The notes beneath the pieces are model-generated. The model made no database searches and was not told the DNA's origin. It worked only from the letters and a program-made list of their open reading frames with translations. Shown here piece by piece: positions 33,935 to 43,415 of a stretch of DNA of 64,000 nucleotides (its first letter is position 1; every line of letters starts with the position of its first letter). A program made the position numbers and the translations under genes. Location of the stretch: IMG/VR virus record IMGVR_UViG_3300017911_002158, positions 32,303 to 96,302 of that record; one strand, given 5' to 3'. The DNA comes from a virus (lineage: Duplodnaviria > Caudoviricetes).

Positions 33935-34455
33935 TGAGGGGCCTTGGCTTGATGAATATGGTTGGATGTTATCGGTATGTTATCATATTGTTTTTATGGT
34001 AATGTTTACGAAGGTAATGTTTAAAGGGTGGAAGTAATCCCCCGTGAGTGGGGAAAAATGATTTATACCCCTGATAGGGGGTTGTACCACCCAAACTGGG
34101 CGGTTAAATTTTATGAAAACAGCCAGCCAAAATCAAGCCCAAAATTTTTATTTTCCTGTAAAGTATCTGGGGTGGATTGTCGATATATAAAGTATTGGCA
34201 AGGATAACCCACGGAGAAAAAAGATGTTGACACTCTACACGATTTTTGGTATGTTTGTTGGTTTCGAGGGATACGATAACGGCAAAGTTTACTTTGGGAT
34301 TTATACCCCCCAATATGAGTATGGGTATGTGATTACGCAGAATGAAATTTATCTGGACACAATTTTAGAAAAATCTAAAGATTAGGGGTTGACTTGGACG
34401 ATCCAAGGAGTATAATTCGGGCATGACACGTAACCAACACCACGGAGGATTGAAG

Positions 34456-34638
34456 ATGGATGAAATCAACACTGCTCTCTTGATTGCTGCTCTTGAGGCT
34501 GAAGGAACTATTGAGCCTTGCGACGATATCAATGCCCATCCTCTTGACTGGATGGATGCTACTGGTGTAGACTTGATCGACGATTACTTCAAGGATAACG
34601 ACCCGCTTTACGCTCTACTGCTTGAGGAGGCTAACTGA
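34456..34638 (+). CDS. Acidic hypothetical protein
   Basis: GGAGG RBS, promoter at 34376-34416. Confidence 0.6.
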   Translation: MDEINTALLIAALEAEGTIEPCDDINAHPLDWMDATGVDLIDDYFKDNDPLYALLLEEAN

Positions 34639-34853
34639 TGACACCTAGCGAGAATATTTACAATTCGGACTATGATGAAATTGACGGACTTGTTGACGTT
34701 GAAGGTTATTGTGACGAGATGATGGAAGGAGTGTACGATTACCACGAGGATGATTATTACGATGATAGCATGGATGGGGATTTTGATTCGGCCATGCGTG
34801 ATTGTGGATTCGGAACTGATGAGGACTATGGTTACTATGGAGAGGATTATTGA
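34638..34853 (+). CDS. Very acidic Tyr/Asp-rich protein
   Basis: DGDFDSAMRDCGFGTDEDYG; coupled to the upstream gene. Confidence 0.65.
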   Translation: MTPSENIYNSDYDEIDGLVDVEGYCDEMMEGVYDYHEDDYYDDSMDGDFDSAMRDCGFGTDEDYGYYGEDY

Positions 34854-35350
34854 TGAGACAATATAACTGCTACGATATAAAAACTGTTGACAATCAAAAT
34901 CACTACGGTACTTGCTCAGTAATTGTGCCAACTATTGACCTTAGTGAAGCAGTTGATCGACAGGAAAATCTGGCCGCTATCTCTGGTGTGTTGGAAAGTA
35001 TTGTGGGCGAGGTTGATAGTTTTAGTTATGAGGAGGTACTATAATGATTCAACTAGACCCTGCTAGTTTGGCGATAGGATATGCTGCTGGTACACTGTTG
35101 TGCTGGTACTTGAATCAAACTCTAAACGCTAAGGAGAGCGAATATGAGCGAGAAGATGACGGAGCGACAGATAAAGACTTTATACATTATAAGAACAGCG
35201 TTTATGGCTGGAATTATCCTTACGATAATAATACATCTGCTAGAAGGTAATGCCACGATTGCAGGGTTTGGTCCGATGTAGTACTTATGGGGGGTTGGAA
35301 AACCATTTTCCCCACCTATGGGGGATATGCGATTTTTTTATTTTTTTTGC

Positions 35351-35387
35351 TTGACAGACTCAAGTTCGGCTGGTAGAATGTCGATAT
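35351..35387 (+). promoter_or_regulatory. Composite sigma70/sigma28-like promoter
   Basis: TTGACA-17-TAGAAT overlapping TCAAG-15-GTCGATAT. Confidence 0.75.
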
Positions 35388-35464
35388 AGTTAGTAGGGAA
35401 AGCAACCACACGGGTGTCTTCCCTATGGTAGAATGTTAGTAGGTTTAGTTTCGCTTCGGAGAAA

Positions 35465-35854
35465 ATGAAAATGGAAAACGTGATTATGATTGCTGGTTTC
35501 TTGGCTGTTAGTGCTTTGGTTTTGGTTATGTTTGGTGTGTATGCCGTCTATGGTGGTAGTCATGCCGAACTTTGCAACGCTAAACCCGGTCAGGTATTCA
35601 ACTTTGAGTATCTTCAGCCGCTGAATGGCGAACGCAAGCGTGTGCTTGCTAAAGTTCTTGAGCGACCAGTTCACTTGGACGATCATACTATCGCTAGCAT
35701 GAACGCTAGAAGTGCCTATCGTCGAAATGATCCTAAGTTTGAGCGTACTCATCATCTGGTAACGTGTCAAACTGCCGATGGTAATATCCGACAGTTCTAC
35801 TGTGAACGTGTCAAGAACTGCCGAAAGCCACTACTTGGCTCTCTGGTTGCATAA
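35465..35854 (+). CDS. Membrane-anchored hypothetical protein
   Basis: N-terminal hydrophobic helix, RBS GGAG. Confidence 0.65.
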   Translation: MKMENVIMIAGFLAVSALVLVMFGVYAVYGGSHAELCNAKPGQVFNFEYLQPLNGERKRVLAKVLERPVHLDDHTIASMNARSAYRRNDPKFERTHHLVTCQTADGNIRQFYCERVKNCRKPLLGSLVA

Positions 35855-35880
35855 CTCTCTCCGTGGTGGTGTTGTCGAAA

Positions 35881-35918
35881 GCCCCGTCACTCAGCAATGG
35901 GTGGCGGGGTTTTCTTTT
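35881..35918 (+). terminator. Intrinsic terminator
   Basis: GCCCCGTCACTCA-gcaa-TGGGTGGCGGGGT plus T tract. Confidence 0.85.
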
Positions 35919-36122
35919 ATACTTATTTGGTGGGGGTAAAACCATTTTTTTGCCACCAATGGGGGGTTGTACCACCCGAACTGACCAGTTTGGCATTATG
36001 GTAAAGCCAGCCAAAATCTAGCAAATTCTGTGCCGAATATTTTTTTTATTTTTTCTGGATTTTTTACTTGACGGCTGACGATAATATGATATACTGGAGA
36101 GACAACCACGGAGAACAATACC

Positions 36123-36830
36123 ATGAAAACTGCAAACGGCAACGATAAACTAGGCAAGGAAAACTGCATCGTCGTGAGTCGCCCCGTTGGCGATACTTGC
36201 CCGCCTACTTGTGCGTTCCTTGGCAACGGCTGCTATGCCGAACAGACTGAGAAGATATATCCGGGTGTTCGCCCTGCTGGTATGCAAAACGTCATCACCG
36301 AACGTGGGCGTATTCGCTCGATGATTATTGACGCGGAGCGTAAAGGCAAGTCTATCCGCTGGCATGAGCGTGGTGACTGGTTCCTCAATGGTAAACTCGA
36401 CACCGATTATGTCGATAACGTAGTCTGGGCGTGTGAGAGTATTCTGGCTGACGGCGGTAGTCTGCCCGATATGTGGTTCTACACTCATATTTACGATAGT
36501 CGGCTGGTCAGTATGAACAAGTATATGGCCGTGTATGCTAGTGTTCACAATGCCCAAGATGTTCTCGATGCTAAGGCCGTTGGTTTCAAACTGTTCGCAT
36601 GGTGTGACAGTGACCAGAAGATTGCCACCAAGCGTCCGCGTGGCAAGGTCAAGGCTCAACAGTGGCGTGACAGTCTGCCAAAGTTGGTTGTCATCGACAA
36701 CGAGAAGTATGTCACCTGCCCTGAGATTCGTCGTGGTCGTGGTGTCGTGACCTGCACGCCAACCAAAAATAGTGTCGCCTGCAATCTGTGCGTCAAGGGT
36801 CTGGGTAACGTACTGTTTCCATCACACTGA
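36123..36830 (+). CDS. Gp88-like Cys-rich (radical-SAM-like) phage protein
   Basis: TCPPTC....GCYA, IRWHERGD, WFYTH, CP...C..C..C. Confidence 0.65.
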   Translation: MKTANGNDKLGKENCIVVSRPVGDTCPPTCAFLGNGCYAEQTEKIYPGVRPAGMQNVITERGRIRSMIIDAERKGKSIRWHERGDWFLNGKLDTDYVDNVVWACESILADGGSLPDMWFYTHIYDSRLVSMNKYMAVYASVHNAQDVLDAKAVGFKLFAWCDSDQKIATKRPRGKVKAQQWRDSLPKLVVIDNEKYVTCPEIRRGRGVVTCTPTKNSVACNLCVKGLGNVLFPSH

Positions 36831-36997
36831 GGAGTTTACTATGTTCAAAGTAGTCAAAGACGAGAATGTTATATCATACTGGGAGTGTGAAGATTGTCAT
36901 GACAAAGTTGGCATCACGCCCGACTGGTATGAACAGAATGGCACACCAGTGTGTGTTGAATGTGACCGGGATATGTTATACGGCTGGACGGAGGTGA

Positions 36998-37228
36998 ATG
37001 TCGATGGCTAAATACTATATTCAATCTGGCAGTCTACAACTGATATACTCAACTAGTCAAAGCGTGTTCGATGCTTGTAGGACAGTATTGTGGGAGTGTA
37101 ATGAAAACGATACCCTGGACGAGTATTTTTATATTGACGAGCGTGGCTTTCGTGGATATGTTAGTGCTGATGGAGATACTATGGTTGTTCCGTCTATTGA
37201 GATAATGGAGGCTGAAGGCTGGGCATGA
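36998..37228 (+). CDS. Hypothetical early protein
   Basis: GGAGGTG RBS. Confidence 0.6.
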   Translation: MSMAKYYIQSGSLQLIYSTSQSVFDACRTVLWECNENDTLDEYFYIDERGFRGYVSADGDTMVVPSIEIMEAEGWA

Positions 37229-37284
37229 TATAAAAAGCCATTTACCCTACTATTGGGGGATGAGGTATTCACCGCAAAAAATTC

Positions 37285-37324
37285 TAAAGTTTTCTCTTGA
37301 CAGCGACGATAATAATGATATACT
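37285..37324 (+). promoter_or_regulatory. Composite promoter driving the tRNA-like RNA
   Basis: TAAAG-15-GACGATAA overlapping TTGACA-16-TATACT. Confidence 0.75.
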
Positions 37325-37331
37325 TAGAACA

Positions 37332-37442
37332 CACGGCACGAAGACAGTTTCCAAGCGTTCGTACCTGAGATTGTGATGCCATAAGGTACTGTGGTCCAGC
37401 AATCGGAAACGCTTGTAGGGTGCAACTCCCTAGTGACCGTGG
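37332..37442 (+). ncRNA. Putative tRNA-like structured RNA with pseudoknot
   Basis: Acceptor-like stem, T-arm TAGGG-TGCAACT-CCCTA, 8 bp CAAGCGTT/AACGCTTG helix, GTACCT/AGGTAC pseudoknot; begins ~7 nt after a -10 box. Confidence 0.6.
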
Positions 37443-37785
37443 CCGTACAACAATTGTCTATACAGTATATTTTGGAGAGCATGATGAATAAAGAACAACA
37501 AATAAAAACAATACTCAACTACCTGAATAGTAAGATGAGTGCTATGAGCAAACCCGAAACAGAAAAGGTCAAGAAAATCCTGGAGGATGACGATATTAGT
37601 CTACAGGAGGTAGTAGAATGGTATATCGACTATGTGCGTTCGCATTGATCTTTTGTAGTGGTTGTGTGAGTACCAGCAGGGTTTCTCTATTTTGCAACAA
37701 AACAATAGACCTTGACAAACGCCCGCTAGAGGGTACAATGGACGTTGGCATCCGATTGGAACTGTTTAGGAATTGGAAGTAGAAT

Positions 37786-38040
37786 ATGAGCAAGATTATT
37801 GTGAGTACATGTGGATGGTGCGAGGCTGATCCTAGCCGTACGATGTTCCAGTATATTGGAGATCGGGACGATGTGGACAAGTTGATTAGTGGCGAGCAGT
37901 GGTTGTCGCTACCAGAAGATGATGATCTTGATGTGGAAATATGTCGTAATGATTATATCCTAGAATCTGTTGCATCAGCGTTCAAGTATGCTCTTGATGG
38001 TGAGTATTCCCACGTTGATGTGGAGGTGGAAAATGAGTAA
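37786..38040 (+). CDS. Acidic hypothetical protein
   Basis: sigma70 promoter at about 37712-37739; 84 aa. Confidence 0.55.
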   Translation: MSKIIVSTCGWCEADPSRTMFQYIGDRDDVDKLISGEQWLSLPEDDDLDVEICRNDYILESVASAFKYALDGEYSHVDVEVENE

Positions 38041-38378
38041 GTACGGCAAGATAAAAACTAAAGTAAAGAAACCTTGGGAGTTAGCCCGTGGACACAACAG
38101 CCATCGTTCTGGTTCTGGTAGTCATGATAACAGGCCTCGCAGAATTCGCACCAGAATGGATGTTCGGAGACGAGCATTAGCAGAATATTGCTAGCCAGAA
38201 AAACCTTTTATCCTTCTGTTGGGGGGGTGACACACCCAAACTGACCAGTTGAAATTTATGAAAACAGCCAGCGAAAAATTCAAGATTATGCTCTTGACAG
38301 GACGATACTATATGGTAGAATGATAGGACAAGCAACAAGCACTGTGCAAGTTGCAACTTTGGTTTAGACGATTGGAGA

Positions 38379-38627
38379 ATGATAATGAAGAAGTTTAGTT
38401 TCACCATCGACATGGTTTCTGATGCTCTCGACATTGAGACAACCAAGGCTGAAATTCAGCAGTTCCTTGCAGAGAAGCATGAGAGTGTTGTTTCGCAAGT
38501 AAAGTCTGCTGGAGTCAAGAACTTCAGCGAGCAGGGTTTCAAGGTCTGGCGTGCTAGGGTTACTGGTGTGACCGCCAAGCAGGCTGGTGATGCTCATAAC
38601 CCAAAGGCTGAGACAACTGCCTCCTGA
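38379..38627 (+). CDS. Hypothetical protein
   Basis: Composite promoter at 38280-38321, RBS GGAG, downstream hairpin at 38635-38670. Confidence 0.65.
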   Translation: MIMKKFSFTIDMVSDALDIETTKAEIQQFLAEKHESVVSQVKSAGVKNFSEQGFKVWRARVTGVTAKQAGDAHNPKAETTAS

Positions 38628-38676
38628 CTGCTCTAGGGTAGGCCCGTAGGTTTGCTGCGGGTCTACCTTTAGTCAA

Positions 38677-38748
38677 GGCCCCATAGTTCAACGGATAGAA
38701 CAGCGGTCTTCTAAACCGTAGATAGAGGTTCGATTCCTCTTGGGGCTA
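38677..38748 (+). tRNA. tRNA-Arg(TCT)
   Basis: Cloverleaf GGCCCCA/TGGGGCT, anticodon loop CT-TCT-AA, GGTTCGATTCC T-arm; no encoded CCA. Confidence 0.93.
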
Positions 38749-38862
38749 CTTGACTTTCTTTGAGTGGTGTGGTAAACTTGTACCTGGAGGTGCGTATGGA
38801 ATGGTTGATTATTATTACGGTTGTGTGCTTGTCTATTCATGGTATTTACAAAGGAGAACAAA

Positions 38863-39372
38863 GTGCCTAACTGGTGTGCTAATAACGTGACGATTACCCA
38901 TGATGATCCTGCTAAACTCAACGAGTTGCTGGATGCTTACAAGCGTGGGGAGTTGATGGAACACTATCTACCTACGCCAAGAGATCCAAATGATCCAACC
39001 AAGTTGCTTGGTCAAGGTATACCAACAACGATTGGCGGCAACGATTGGTATAATTGGCGTGTGCATAATTGGGGTACTAAGTGGGACGTTGGTGGTGAGT
39101 ACGCTTTTTGTAAACGCATAGTTACTGCTGACAATACTGTTGTGCTATCTTTCGATAGTGCATGGTCGCCGCCTATTGAGTTTTATAGTTTCCTAAAAGA
39201 TGAACACGGTTTTGATATTCGTGCATCATACTTTGAACCGGGTATGGCTTTCTGCGGTGATTGGATCGACGGTGTGGATGATTATTATGAGGGTGAGTGG
39301 CGAGATTTTCCAGATCATCTTATCCAAGAATATAATATGGAAGAGTTCTATGAGGATGAAGAAGTAGCATAA
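38863..39372 (+). CDS. YubB/DUF1281-like ferredoxin-fold protein
   Basis: PNWCAN, WYNWRVHNWGTKWD, FDSAWSPP, YFEPGMAFCG. Confidence 0.8.
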   Translation: MPNWCANNVTITHDDPAKLNELLDAYKRGELMEHYLPTPRDPNDPTKLLGQGIPTTIGGNDWYNWRVHNWGTKWDVGGEYAFCKRIVTADNTVVLSFDSAWSPPIEFYSFLKDEHGFDIRASYFEPGMAFCGDWIDGVDDYYEGEWRDFPDHLIQEYNMEEFYEDEEVA

Positions 39373-39419
39373 TAAAATTCGGAGGCTAGTGCTAAGTATT
39401 TATAATTTATAACTTTATC

Positions 39420-39457
39420 GCCCGTCTCAGGAGCAATCCTGGGGCGGGTTTATTTTT
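39420..39457 (+). terminator. Intrinsic terminator
   Basis: GCCCGTCTCAGGA-gcaa-TCCTGGGGCGGGT plus T tract. Confidence 0.85.
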
Positions 39458-39508
39458 GGCATAAAAAAAGCGTTTTACCCCCACGATAGGGGATGACCAA
39501 AGTTTTCT

Positions 39509-39549
39509 TAAAGAATTATGCTTGACAGGGACGATAAGTATGGTATACT
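39509..39549 (+). promoter_or_regulatory. Composite sigma70/sigma28-like promoter
   Basis: TAAAG-16-GACGATAA overlapping TTGACA-16-TATACT. Confidence 0.8.
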
Positions 39550-39588
39550 CAAGGCATAGCAAGTAACCACTAACGAAAGGACGATAAG

Positions 39589-40536
39589 ATGCCTGCTAAT
39601 GTTGAAACTATGTTCTACACTGGTGCTACCCCTTGGCACGGTCTTGGTGAAAAGTTGGAGCAGGCTCCGACGATCAGCGAGGCCATTGAGGCGAGTGGGT
39701 TGAATTGGGAAGTTGGAACCAAGGATCTGGTGACCGTTGATGGTCAGTCGGTTCCTGCAAGGGCTACCTATCGCAAGAGCGACAATAGTATTCTGGGGGT
39801 TGTCGGGCCTCGATATGTCCCGCTCCAGAACAAGGATGCTTTTGAATGGTTCCAGCCGTTCGTTGATGCTGGCGAGTGCAGCCTGCATACTGGTGGATCG
39901 CTAAGTGACGGTCAGAAGGTCTGGGTTCTTGCTCAGTTGAACCGTGACCCTAGCGAGATTGTGTCTGGTGATGAGGTGCAGAAGTTCATCCTTCTGTCAA
40001 ACAGTCACGATGGCACTACCGCTATCCGTGTAGGCTATACCCCGATTCGGGTTGTGTGTGTCAATACCTTGGCTTTTGCTCACTCCCACAAGGAGAGCAA
40101 TCTGCTGAGAATCCGACATACTCGTAGCAGCAAGACTGCCCTAGATAATGTCCGTGACATCATGGACAATATCAACGCTCAGTTTGAGGCTACTGCTGAA
40201 CAGTATCGGTTCCTCGCTAGTCGAGACTTCAATCAGGCTGACGTACAGAAGTATGTCAAGGTTCTGCTTGGAGTTGACAAGAAGGCTCCAGAGGACATCA
40301 AGACTCGGACGCAGAATATCCTGACCGAGATTCTTGCTACCATCGAAGGGCCAAAGCAGAGTATGCCCGGAGTACGGGGTACTTGGTGGGCTGCCTACAA
40401 CGGCTTCAACGAGTATCTCAATTACACCAAGGGACGGAATACCAATAACCGTCTGGAAAGCCTCTGGTTCGGCCAGAATGGCACTGATAATAACAAGGCG
40501 TTGCAACTAGCGACAGAGTTCGCCAACGCCGTATAA
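39589..40536 (+). CDS. DUF932-family phage/plasmid protein
   Basis: PWHGLG, LGVVGPRY.PLQN, NSHDG, TPIRVVCVNTL, GTWWAAYNGFNEY. Confidence 0.9.
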   Translation: MPANVETMFYTGATPWHGLGEKLEQAPTISEAIEASGLNWEVGTKDLVTVDGQSVPARATYRKSDNSILGVVGPRYVPLQNKDAFEWFQPFVDAGECSLHTGGSLSDGQKVWVLAQLNRDPSEIVSGDEVQKFILLSNSHDGTTAIRVGYTPIRVVCVNTLAFAHSHKESNLLRIRHTRSSKTALDNVRDIMDNINAQFEATAEQYRFLASRDFNQADVQKYVKVLLGVDKKAPEDIKTRTQNILTEILATIEGPKQSMPGVRGTWWAAYNGFNEYLNYTKGRNTNNRLESLWFGQNGTDNNKALQLATEFANAV

Positions 40537-40566
40537 CGCTCTCCTTTCGTGGTGGTGAGCGAGAGA

Positions 40567-40599
40567 GGTCGCCCTGAGAAATCGGGGCGGCCTTTTTTT
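40567..40599 (+). terminator. Intrinsic terminator
   Basis: GGTCGCCCTGA-gaaa-TCGGGGCGGCC plus T7. Confidence 0.88.
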
Positions 40600-40792
40600 A
40601 TTGGCACAAAAAGTGTTTTACCCCCACAATCATACTACTAATATAATTATGTACCACCTAAACAAACCCATTCGGACTTTGTAAGATAGTCAGCAAAATT
40701 AGTGGCCATTTGGAAAAATTAAAGAATGTACTTGACAGGTGACGATATGTATTGTATACTGGGATGAGTAAGACGAAACCCTAAAGGAGAAA

Positions 40793-41017
40793 ATGATGAT
40801 CGCTGCTTACAACCGTCGCCCCATGTCCGTATCCTGCTGCCACTGTGGTGCAGAGCATAGTCTCATGGTAAATCCAGAAGATATTATTCGTTGGCAATCT
40901 GGCGAGTATATCCAAGATTGTATGGGATATTTGTCATCAGCAGAACGTGAACTTCTTATTAGTCAGACTTGTGATGATTGTTGGAAGAATATGTTCGGTA
41001 GTGATGAGGATGAATAA
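40793..41017 (+). CDS. Small zinc-binding hypothetical protein
   Basis: CCHCG...CDDCW; composite promoter at 40720-40760. Confidence 0.65.
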   Translation: MMIAAYNRRPMSVSCCHCGAEHSLMVNPEDIIRWQSGEYIQDCMGYLSSAERELLISQTCDDCWKNMFGSDEDE

Positions 41018-41182
41018 TGTATGACTATCAGTTCTTCTATGATATGAGGGATATATCTACTGAAGAAATTAAAGAACATAGGGACTTTGCTTCTGAATCG
41101 TGGCAATATGCAGACTATCAACAAAGATGCCATCTAAAGTGTCTGAAGGATAGTTGTGTTAGGGAACTTATAAGGAGAAAGA

Positions 41183-41581
41183 ATGAAATATCAAATTAGG
41201 TTCCACCTTGCTAGGGGTGAACATTATATGCACTGGCAAATTAAGGCTTATGATGGGTCTGTACAGTATATTAATCCTGCTAAACAAGATATCGAAATGA
41301 TTGGCTGTAAATTAGTCAATAAAATTGGTGCAGCAAAGAGGGTTAATAGTCGGGGTGTTAAGGATGTGTGTGGATGGATAGAGTGTGATAATTATTGGCC
41401 TAGATATATTGATGATATTCCTATCTATGGTTTAGAAAGATTGAGTTATAATCCTATTAGGGATATTCATTGGCGTAGGGCTAGTGATGATGGTGAATTC
41501 AGTTGGGATAATAGTGAGTATGATAGTCTAGTAACTAATGGATCAAGTGTCTATGTGCTAGAAGAAACCTGCTGCTCTTAA
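41183..41581 (+). CDS. Hypothetical protein
   Basis: AAGGAG RBS, 132 aa. Confidence 0.65.
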   Translation: MKYQIRFHLARGEHYMHWQIKAYDGSVQYINPAKQDIEMIGCKLVNKIGAAKRVNSRGVKDVCGWIECDNYWPRYIDDIPIYGLERLSYNPIRDIHWRRASDDGEFSWDNSEYDSLVTNGSSVYVLEETCCS

Positions 41582-41609
41582 ATACATATATAATAACCGT
41601 TCTCCTTTG

Positions 41610-41639
41610 GCCTCCGGGGTAAAATCCGGGGGCTTTTTT
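41610..41639 (+). terminator. Intrinsic terminator
   Basis: GCCTCCGG...CCGGGGGC plus T6. Confidence 0.8.
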
Positions 41640-43415
41640 ATTTGTATTACCTAATATATTAAGGTCGTGACAATGTGGACAGCCAGTAAAACTGGTCTAT
41701 TAAATTCATTATGTATTATCCAAACTAATCCTTTCGCCTGATAATAGATAGTCAGTCAAATCTTACGGTCAGTAGTATTGGTTAGGGATATACTATTGTA
41801 GCATGTAGTCTAGTAGAGTCAAGGGCCAGTATATTTATTATGCAGGAAAGAGTATTAGTATTACCCAAAGTAATAGGTGAACGCCAATATTAGATAGCCA
41901 GTAAAAATTAATAGTATAGTCTTATTGAACTCAAGCCCCCTAAATAACCTCTTAACCCCTCTGCATAACTAGTAGTCAGAATTCTAGAAAGTGTCAAGGT
42001 GAAAAAATTATAAAAAAATTCTAGACCATGAAACTTGCATCTTTAGGCCCAGTGGATACTATAGGTCAGGGAGTCAGTAGTAGTATGTGGTATGCGATTA
42101 AATTAGATAGTAGTATTGATTGTAAGAAAATTTGTACTAGTATACAAAAGAACCTGTTCGAGAAATTTCTCAAAGAAAATATCCCACTAGATGGTAAAAT
42201 TTTATATATGGAGATTAAAGACCCAGTAGATTCATCTGCACCAATAGAATCACTGGAACATAAAAAACCCAATATTATCGAGAGTTAATAAGGTTTTTAC
42301 TACTACTAGTATACAATATATCAAGGCCCAGTAAAGATTCTACCATATTTATTATCAAGACTATACATTAAATGAATATTTTTGCAATCTTTTGTAGAGA
42401 AATTCACCATATTTTATTCTTTTCTGCATAAAAATGCCCGTATTTCCCGTGTTTTTTTAATTTAGTCACTTATTTTGCGGCGACGAGGTAAAATCGGGAA
42501 TAAATATAAATCCCCACCAGAGAACTAGCAGTACCCTCTATTTCCCTATTGACTCTACTGTTACTGTTAGTTATACTAGTAGTAGGAAACTCTTAAAAAA
42601 TAGGGGAAAAATTATGTATAAGCCCATGCTTCTTACAGATCAAGAACTAAAATTACTACTAGAAATCATAGACTCTCATAAGGGTAATAATGGTCATAAT
42701 GCCACTAATATCCACCTAATTAAGCGTAGAATTACCCATTTGATTAATGCTAAAAAATAGGTAGAAAGTGTAATTAAGGAGAATTCCCCACTAATTAAAA
42801 AGAAATCAAACCTAATTGGGCAATAGTCCCACAGAAATCAAAATACGGTGCTTATATGTTCAATATAGTCTTATTGTGTATATGGTTATTGGTAAATTTA
42901 CTAATGATAGTATATGAGAGGAAAGCCTGTTATGAAAAAGACTATCATGGTTATGGCAACCATTACAATAGAAGGTGATGATCTCAATGCGGGATTTCTC
43001 AAGAGTATTTTGCAGAAGATAAGGAAGTGGTTTAAATACCAGCACAGGCTAGAGTCAGATACTTATATTGTTGCTAATGTGGAATTTAGTGATAGTTATA
43101 TTGAAATAGAAAGGTAGTCTAGTGGATATATTTGATATAGAAAGTCTAGTTTCTTATATAGAGGAAAATCACTATAATCCAATAGAAATGCTACCATCTT
43201 TTTCTACTAAAAAAATAGAAACCATATATAACAAAAATAACAAGTACAATGGTGAAGATGTAGTAGTTACGGATATTACTCTGGAAAATTCCGATATAAG
43301 AATTACTCTAAATGAAGGTGGTACTTGGTCAGTCGATTTCTGGAATAAATAGTAAAGTCTACCCTTGACTCAGGACGATAGTGGTGGTATACTGATAGGA
43401 ACCTTGGAGGAAACC

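Follow-up and report, generated by a model that had tools for sequence, protein, structure and literature searches.

We examined a window of 64 kb, the 3' part of the 96-kb IMG/VR contig IMGVR_UViG_3300017911_002158 from an uncultured phage (approximately 68 % complete), with a focus on three short sequences that lie between a stop codon and an intrinsic terminator and are complementary to ribosome-binding sites. Near and distant DNA searches against GenBank phages matched only a tRNA. The region from 34 to 42 kb is an array of short plus-strand units, each with a sigma70-like promoter, a leader of 20–40 nucleotides (nt) and one to three small open reading frames (ORFs), with an intrinsic terminator in some units. 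As these promoters are of the host type, the genes of the array are presumably early genes. A preliminary description of the window had reported three anti-ribosome-binding-site sequences here, each just upstream of an intrinsic terminator; all three were found exactly where it had placed them, at 0–12 nt from their terminators. The units that carry these sequences (elements 1, 2 and 3) comprise the following features, in which SD denotes the Shine-Dalgarno sequence.

35351–35379, plus strand: sigma70-like promoter of unit 1, TTGACA-17-TAGAAT, 11/12 matches
35452–35462, plus strand: leader and SD of the gene at 35465–35854, predicted partner of element 1 (pair probabilities 0.86–0.95 in a 540-nt transcript)
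35465–35854, plus strand: gene for a 129-amino-acid (aa) early protein of no family (the element 1 gene)
35855–35876, plus strand: element 1, an anti-SD tract then a GT-rich tract, beginning directly after the stop codon
35877–35920, plus strand: intrinsic terminator of unit 1, a 17-pair stem and T run
36105–36114, plus strand: leader of the next gene (36123–36830), a 10-nt perfect complement of element 1 and possible second target
39522–39549, plus strand: promoter of the DUF932 unit (unit 2), TTGACA-16-TATACT
39566–39581, plus strand: DUF932 leader and SD, predicted partner of element 2 (pair probabilities 0.9–1.0 in a 1045-nt transcript)
39589–40536, plus strand: DUF932/phrog_1221 gene (Pfam PF06067, 3.5e-50; PHROG, 1e-62)
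40537–40557, plus strand: element 2, an anti-SD tract, TTCGTGG and a GT-rich tract
40562–40599, plus strand: intrinsic terminator of the DUF932 unit, a 16-pair hairpin and T run in the minimum free energy (MFE) fold
40732–40760, plus strand: promoter of the three-gene unit 3 (40793–41581), TTGACA-17-TATACT
40782–40791, plus strand: leader and SD of the first cistron of unit 3 (40793–41017), predicted partner of element 3 (pair probabilities up to 0.99 in an 876-nt transcript)
41599–41610, plus strand: element 3, an anti-SD tract that runs into the base of the terminator
41609–41640, plus strand: mapped intrinsic terminator of unit 3

No function has been established for DUF932 in the literature.

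Complementarity and predicted pairing

The word TCTCC occurs three times on the plus strand between 33901 and 41700, close to the Markov expectation of 3.2, and all three copies are the elements; the 25-nt windows preceding terminators make up less than 2 % of this region. CTCC-type words were not significantly depleted under a Markov model (10 observed, 13.9 expected); it is thus their placement, not their number, that carries the signal. Perfect Watson-Crick comparison with the leaders showed the complements proposed in the preliminary description to be exact. The perfect complements of element 1 comprise two of 10 nt, at 36105 and 34438, and one of 9 nt, at 34209. Element 2 is perfectly complementary over 9 nt at 39573 and, beyond a 3-nt bulge, through ACCAC/GTGGT; for element 3 the perfect stretches measure 11 nt (at 38849) and 9 nt (at 40783). 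Every SD-containing match falls in the ribosome-binding position of a plus-strand gene. The elements are anti-SD sequences whose complementarity reaches past the SD core, as had been claimed. In elements 1 and 2 the GT-rich half finds many meaningless complements in coding DNA as well. The leader of a 45-aa ORF (35144–35281) contains, at 35125–35143, the palindromic CGCTAAGGAGAGCG, 10 bases of which perfectly complement the start of element 2. An 82-aa gene (38379–38627) ends in CCTCCTGA, an anti-SD-like word overlapping its stop codon, followed by a hairpin and tRNA-Arg(TCT) at 38677–38748; this region (38618–38748) may be a weaker fourth case.

For elements 1 and 3 the preliminary description had listed neighbouring leaders as partners. 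Those complementarities are real, but they are not the best thermodynamically, and each element proved to pair best with the ribosome site that comes first in the unit to which it belongs. We folded whole transcripts by partition function, beginning at the predicted start site and ending with the terminator, and took the expected number of SD:element pairs as the readout. Units 1, 2 and 3 of the window gave 8.6, 10.3 and 7.4 expected pairs, with probabilities of approximately 0.9–1.0 at the partner positions, and the first 10–17 nt of the leader were unpaired in the folds. Relatives of the DUF932 unit gave 6–12.8 expected pairs in 36/38 cases (the exceptions being L016 with 2.8 and L043 with 0.6; L numbers denote loci in related sequences), and all three element 1 relatives folded were predicted to pair with their own ribosome site (9.4–13.9 pairs). 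Nine other terminated units passed through the same pipeline as controls yielded 0–2.9 expected pairs, with a median of 0.03. Thirty composition-preserving shuffles of the element gave fewer than 1 expected pair in 20 trials and at least 5 in eight; a tail rich in C and U is thus predisposed to pair with the SD, but the native sequence does better. When only ribosome sites were ranked as partners, the own leader came first in 12/39 loci and among the top three in 27/39, with a mean fractional rank of 0.11.

Conservation and co-variation in relatives

A protein-guided scan of viral contigs for the element 2 unit gave 80 loci, for which counts refer to distinct combinations of leader and tail. 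Element 2 was kept in 39 of the 46 combinations (72–97 % aa identity) as a pyrimidine-rich tract followed by TTCGTGG and a GT-rich tract, beginning 0–12 nt past the stop codon, while terminator stems, loops and the distal leader diverged. The other seven combinations were without both element and terminator, and the protein tree requires four gains or losses. Among the 80 metagenome relatives of the DUF932 unit listed from approximately 550, there were 56 further distinct combinations, approximately 50 of which keep the TTCGT core. Distant DUF932 homologues (33–67 % identity) were without element 2, with one possible independent case in a GC-rich homologue (36 % identity; L074:5028-5060), which carries CGCTCTCCC 8 nt past the stop codon and GGGGAGAGG in its leader and may represent an independent origin.

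All homologues of the element 1 gene (L005, L006, L007/L008, L013, L014 and L084–L086) are followed by the motif, even where another hairpin replaces the canonical terminator. A search for further relatives of element 3 returned new loci without a comparable terminator. Purifying selection on elements 1 and 2, two of the three, is supported. A broader reading, in which such elements would be a property of early terminators in general, was not borne out, as other terminators in these phages have AT-rich upstream sequence; the feature is confined to two mutually unrelated gene families. In lineages without the anti-SD element a palindromic hairpin of the type GTAAGTnCTTG...CAAGGACTTAC replaces the terminator. 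It lies just past the DUF932 stop codon in L019, L021, L030, L040, L055 and others, also follows the element 1 homologue in L005/L006/L084, and has many intergenic copies in relatives.

Leader and tail of the element 2 units co-vary. With the register anchored on an invariant CG:CG step, 11 columns were 90 % canonical, compared with 49–63 % when the register was slid by 1–3 positions, and the observed value was not attained in any of 1000 column shuffles. Two columns exchange A-U for G-C or G-U without a single non-canonical cell, and G.U/U.G pairs outnumber A.C/C.A pairs by 53 to 11, as expected for RNA of this strand. Lineages differ in the flanking helices. Across eight clade representatives, own partners averaged −21.4 kcal/mol and swapped partners −19.0 kcal/mol (exact p = 0.0011). 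Among 24 phylogenetically independent sister pairs in which both ends differ, the own combination was better in 15, the swapped combination in four and neither in five (sign test p = 0.0096; Wilcoxon p = 0.0027; mean difference −1.65 kcal/mol). Individual cases include L114/L154, where leader CTCTCACG matches tail CGTGAAGAG, a distal helix formed by GAATC/GGTTC in L015 and by GATTC/GAATC in L167, and L164, in which the helix extends to 14 bp. The preliminary description had named co-variation in relatives as a check on its proposal, and the sister-pair contrasts and whole-transcript folds together favour pairing between element and leader.

In silico, these analyses show a predicted 5'–3' helix centred on the SD that is conserved and co-evolving in two unrelated gene families. 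On balance we therefore favour, from these models, a reading in which elements 1 and 2 are cis-acting anti-SD elements of the 3' untranslated region (UTR), of the type described for icaR, which probably act as a built-in translation brake; element 3 perhaps belongs with them. The interpretation given in the preliminary description is partly supported, as regards an anti-SD tail in cis. Support for element 3 is weak.

Competing explanations

Several observations weigh against this reading and lend themselves to others. Some concern the modelling: folding of 1-kb mRNAs, whether by MFE or by partition function, takes no account of ribosomes or of co-transcriptional folding, and the own leader ranked anywhere from 2nd to 242nd by duplex energy among approximately 700 36-nt windows per locus. 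This rank is unremarkable because the GT-rich tract pairs promiscuously with CA-rich stretches. A sliding RNAduplex scan was uninformative as a test of specificity owing to the same promiscuity of GU-rich pairing. The co-variation signal also has its bounds, in that single-column co-variation on the protein tree yielded only three independent pairs, too few events, and own and swapped partners did not differ over the invariant 10-bp core (p = 0.24). Element 1 matches its own leader perfectly over just 6 nt, and three other leaders over 9–10 nt.

The last of these points is what would be expected if the stretch from stop codon to terminator (approximately 60 nt) were a 3' UTR-derived small RNA (sRNA), with the anti-SD and GT tract as a seed acting in trans on several early leaders, including that of the next unit or of a read-through transcript, and possibly on host mRNAs. 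In sRNAs of the CpxQ and SdhX type, a conserved single-stranded seed precedes a Rho-independent terminator, whose hairpin ends in a U tail. This typical layout is found here, with the seed mostly unpaired in local folds. The leader of the directly downstream gene ranks 1st to 3rd of 17–46 leaders in the window, L013, L005 and L014, and element 2 has its own 10-nt perfect complement in another leader, at 35131. However, nothing pointed to processing or to an internal promoter, the element does not stand alone but accompanies two gene families, and a read-through model of unit 1 left element 1 unpaired with the next leader. The own leader and tail moreover co-vary, for which a general trans regulator would have no need. 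We consider a trans-acting sRNA unlikely.

A second explanation holds that pairing of the two mRNA ends is itself the selected property, guarding the message against decay that is endonucleolytic or depends on the 5' end, as for Bacillus subtilis hbs (PMC5737220), and that covering of the SD is a side effect. It draws on a lineage of metagenome relatives, L116/L118/L122, in which a new GT-rich tract has taken the place of the anti-SD part of the tail; the tail forms two helices with the 5'-terminal leader that leave the SD free. Since sequences of this type pair their ends with the SD exposed, the conserved property may be end-to-end pairing as such, and the distal helices of L015 and L167, far from the SD, co-vary as well. 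Against this, 36/38 relatives have the SD at the centre of the helix, the 5'-most nucleotides of the leader stay unpaired, and anti-SD-like sequences have been measured to lower both mRNA level and translation (PMC12697547). Protection through end pairing is in our view about as improbable as action in trans.

Somewhat less probable again is that the motif is conserved for a reason other than pairing, such as a site for a phage or host protein or an RNase, or a terminator auxiliary, with leader complementarity incidental and element 3 due to chance. TTCGTGG is nearly invariant regardless of the leader, the core energies of own and swapped partners are equal as noted above, and shuffled CU-rich tails paired with the SD in 8/30 trials. 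Element 3 is absent from L013, the sole relative with a matching gene–terminator junction. The leader core is retained even in lineages that have lost the 3' element, and because it survives that loss, the leader must also be constrained for another reason. Nonetheless, two unrelated gene families display the same two-part complementarity to their own leaders, the independent sister-pair contrasts favour own partners, wobble pairs are strand-consistent, the motif is absent at other terminators, and no conserved local hairpin accounts for it.

The preliminary description had also raised the possibility that the elements are ribosome-binding sites of minus-strand micro-ORFs, which fails because L005 and L014 lack the ATG behind element 1 and there is none for elements 2 and 3. 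Other candidates were rejected: an in-frame read-through peptide (the motif's offset from the stop codon varies by 1–11 nt among relatives); a conserved local hairpin or anti-terminator (MFE folds show 2–5-bp stems of inconsistent form, apart from an 8-bp local hairpin made by the element in the L017 clade); a lambda-type nut site, since the boxA-like CGCTCT at the start of element 2 is not conserved (CGATCC, TAATCC and TGATCT occur) and lies only about 5 nt from the terminator; and a Chi-like sequence, the relevant bases of which are not conserved. Rfam returned no family at the gathering threshold except tRNA; sub-threshold matches over the terminator were sX12 (32 bits versus 106) and CC2171 (22 versus 75).

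Proposed mode of action and known systems

The favoured interpretation as cis-acting anti-SD elements implies a simple sequence of events on short early units driven by host RNA polymerase, with the element between stop codon and terminator. When transcription has reached the 3' end, the pyrimidine-rich stretch would pair with the SD of the unit's first cistron and the adjacent GT-rich part with a CAC-rich block immediately upstream of that SD. Together they would close the mRNA into a 5'–3' stem of roughly 10–20 bp beside the terminator hairpin, on which it could stack. Such a stem would lower access of the 30S subunit and may alter decay. Because the helix can form only when the 3' end has been made, nascent messages would be translated and finished ones dampened. 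The size of the ribosome footprint is established, and the element lies within one footprint of the stop codon; ribosomes terminating 1–12 nt upstream of it should therefore melt the stem transiently. A repressive direction is likelier than other directions, given the precedents of icaR and of anti-SD-like 8-mers (PMC3868564, PMC12697547).

A more far-reaching version is that the arrangement is a translation-coupled switch on early genes used by many phages, in which the terminating ribosome melts the stem and licenses re-initiation, so that a message stays open while translated and locks shut afterwards, and in which a released tail could act in trans on neighbouring early leaders. We regard this extended scheme as doubtful. 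If true, it would constitute a protein-free, self-timed shut-off of early expression that may be general.

To our knowledge, self-regulation by pairing between 5' and 3' UTRs has been described for very few bacterial mRNAs (icaR, hbs). The nearest is icaR of Staphylococcus aureus, in which a pyrimidine-rich anti-SD in the 3' UTR pairs with the message's own SD region, blocking the initiation complex and creating an RNase III substrate (PMC3868564). The phage units share with icaR the anti-SD in the 3' UTR of the transcript that carries the target SD, as mapped in three units, and predicted pairing of this motif with the SD region, as indicated by folding, controls and co-variation. They differ in that the icaR 3' UTR exceeds 100 nt and belongs to a single chromosomal gene (PMC3868564), whereas the phage tail measures approximately 60 nt, with the element 0–12 nt past the stop codon and abutting the terminator. 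The phage helix is also bipartite (SD/anti-SD plus CAC/GTG), and the phage case spans two early-gene families and approximately 100 lineages.

In B. subtilis and Escherichia coli, the ribosome-binding site is paired by anti-SD-like 8-mers that lie hundreds of nt downstream of it, some of them in the 3' UTR (Gill et al. 2025, PMC12697547). They promote decay and inhibit initiation, and are deleterious and depleted from genes (PMC12697547). The phage element, in contrast, is positively conserved, which implies use. In hbs, an interaction between the 5' and 3' UTRs controls ribonuclease access and couples stability to translation (PMC5737220). The likeness lies in end-to-end pairing of a short, highly expressed mRNA; in most phage lineages, however, the SD is the centre of the helix. 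The 3' end of hok mRNA folds back on the 5' region, leaving the full-length message translationally inert, and activation involves 3' processing, with mok and sok as partners and a toxin as product. These hok/sok features were not found here, the genes being DUF932 and a 129-aa protein of no family, with no antisense promoter or unit seen. For T7 gene 1.2, Saito and Richardson reportedly noted in 1981 that the 3' end of an early mRNA can pair with the ribosome-binding site; that end is said to arise from RNase III cleavage of a polycistronic RNA, whereas the 3' end in the present phage is set by a terminator.

A literature search found no paper on such elements in phage early mRNAs. In the widespread group of uncultured aquatic phages considered here, the anti-SD tail is positively conserved and co-evolves with the leader. 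Conservation and co-evolution of a sequence that is normally purged suggest that phages exploit the distant anti-SD effect deliberately, as a means of shaping early expression that needs no repressor protein. The element is also short and portable.

The spaces between units of the array contain other recurrent sequences. Early promoters (34389–40760 in the window, and loci L004–L070) share a (G/C)CGATA block between the −35 and −10 hexamers, and relatives also show a promoter spacer block of the form TTGACAnnGCCGATA...TAGAAT. Small palindromes of the CCCC-N6-GGGG type occur after most unit ends and before the next promoter (35288–35325, 35930–35965, 37244–37270, 38209–38232, 39467–39500 and 40610–40630). 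An approximately 60-nt repeat, ACCACCC-AAACTG...CAGCCAGCCAAAATC, sits between terminator and next promoter at 34086–34140, 35966–36020 and 38228–38285, its copies being 76–78 % identical.

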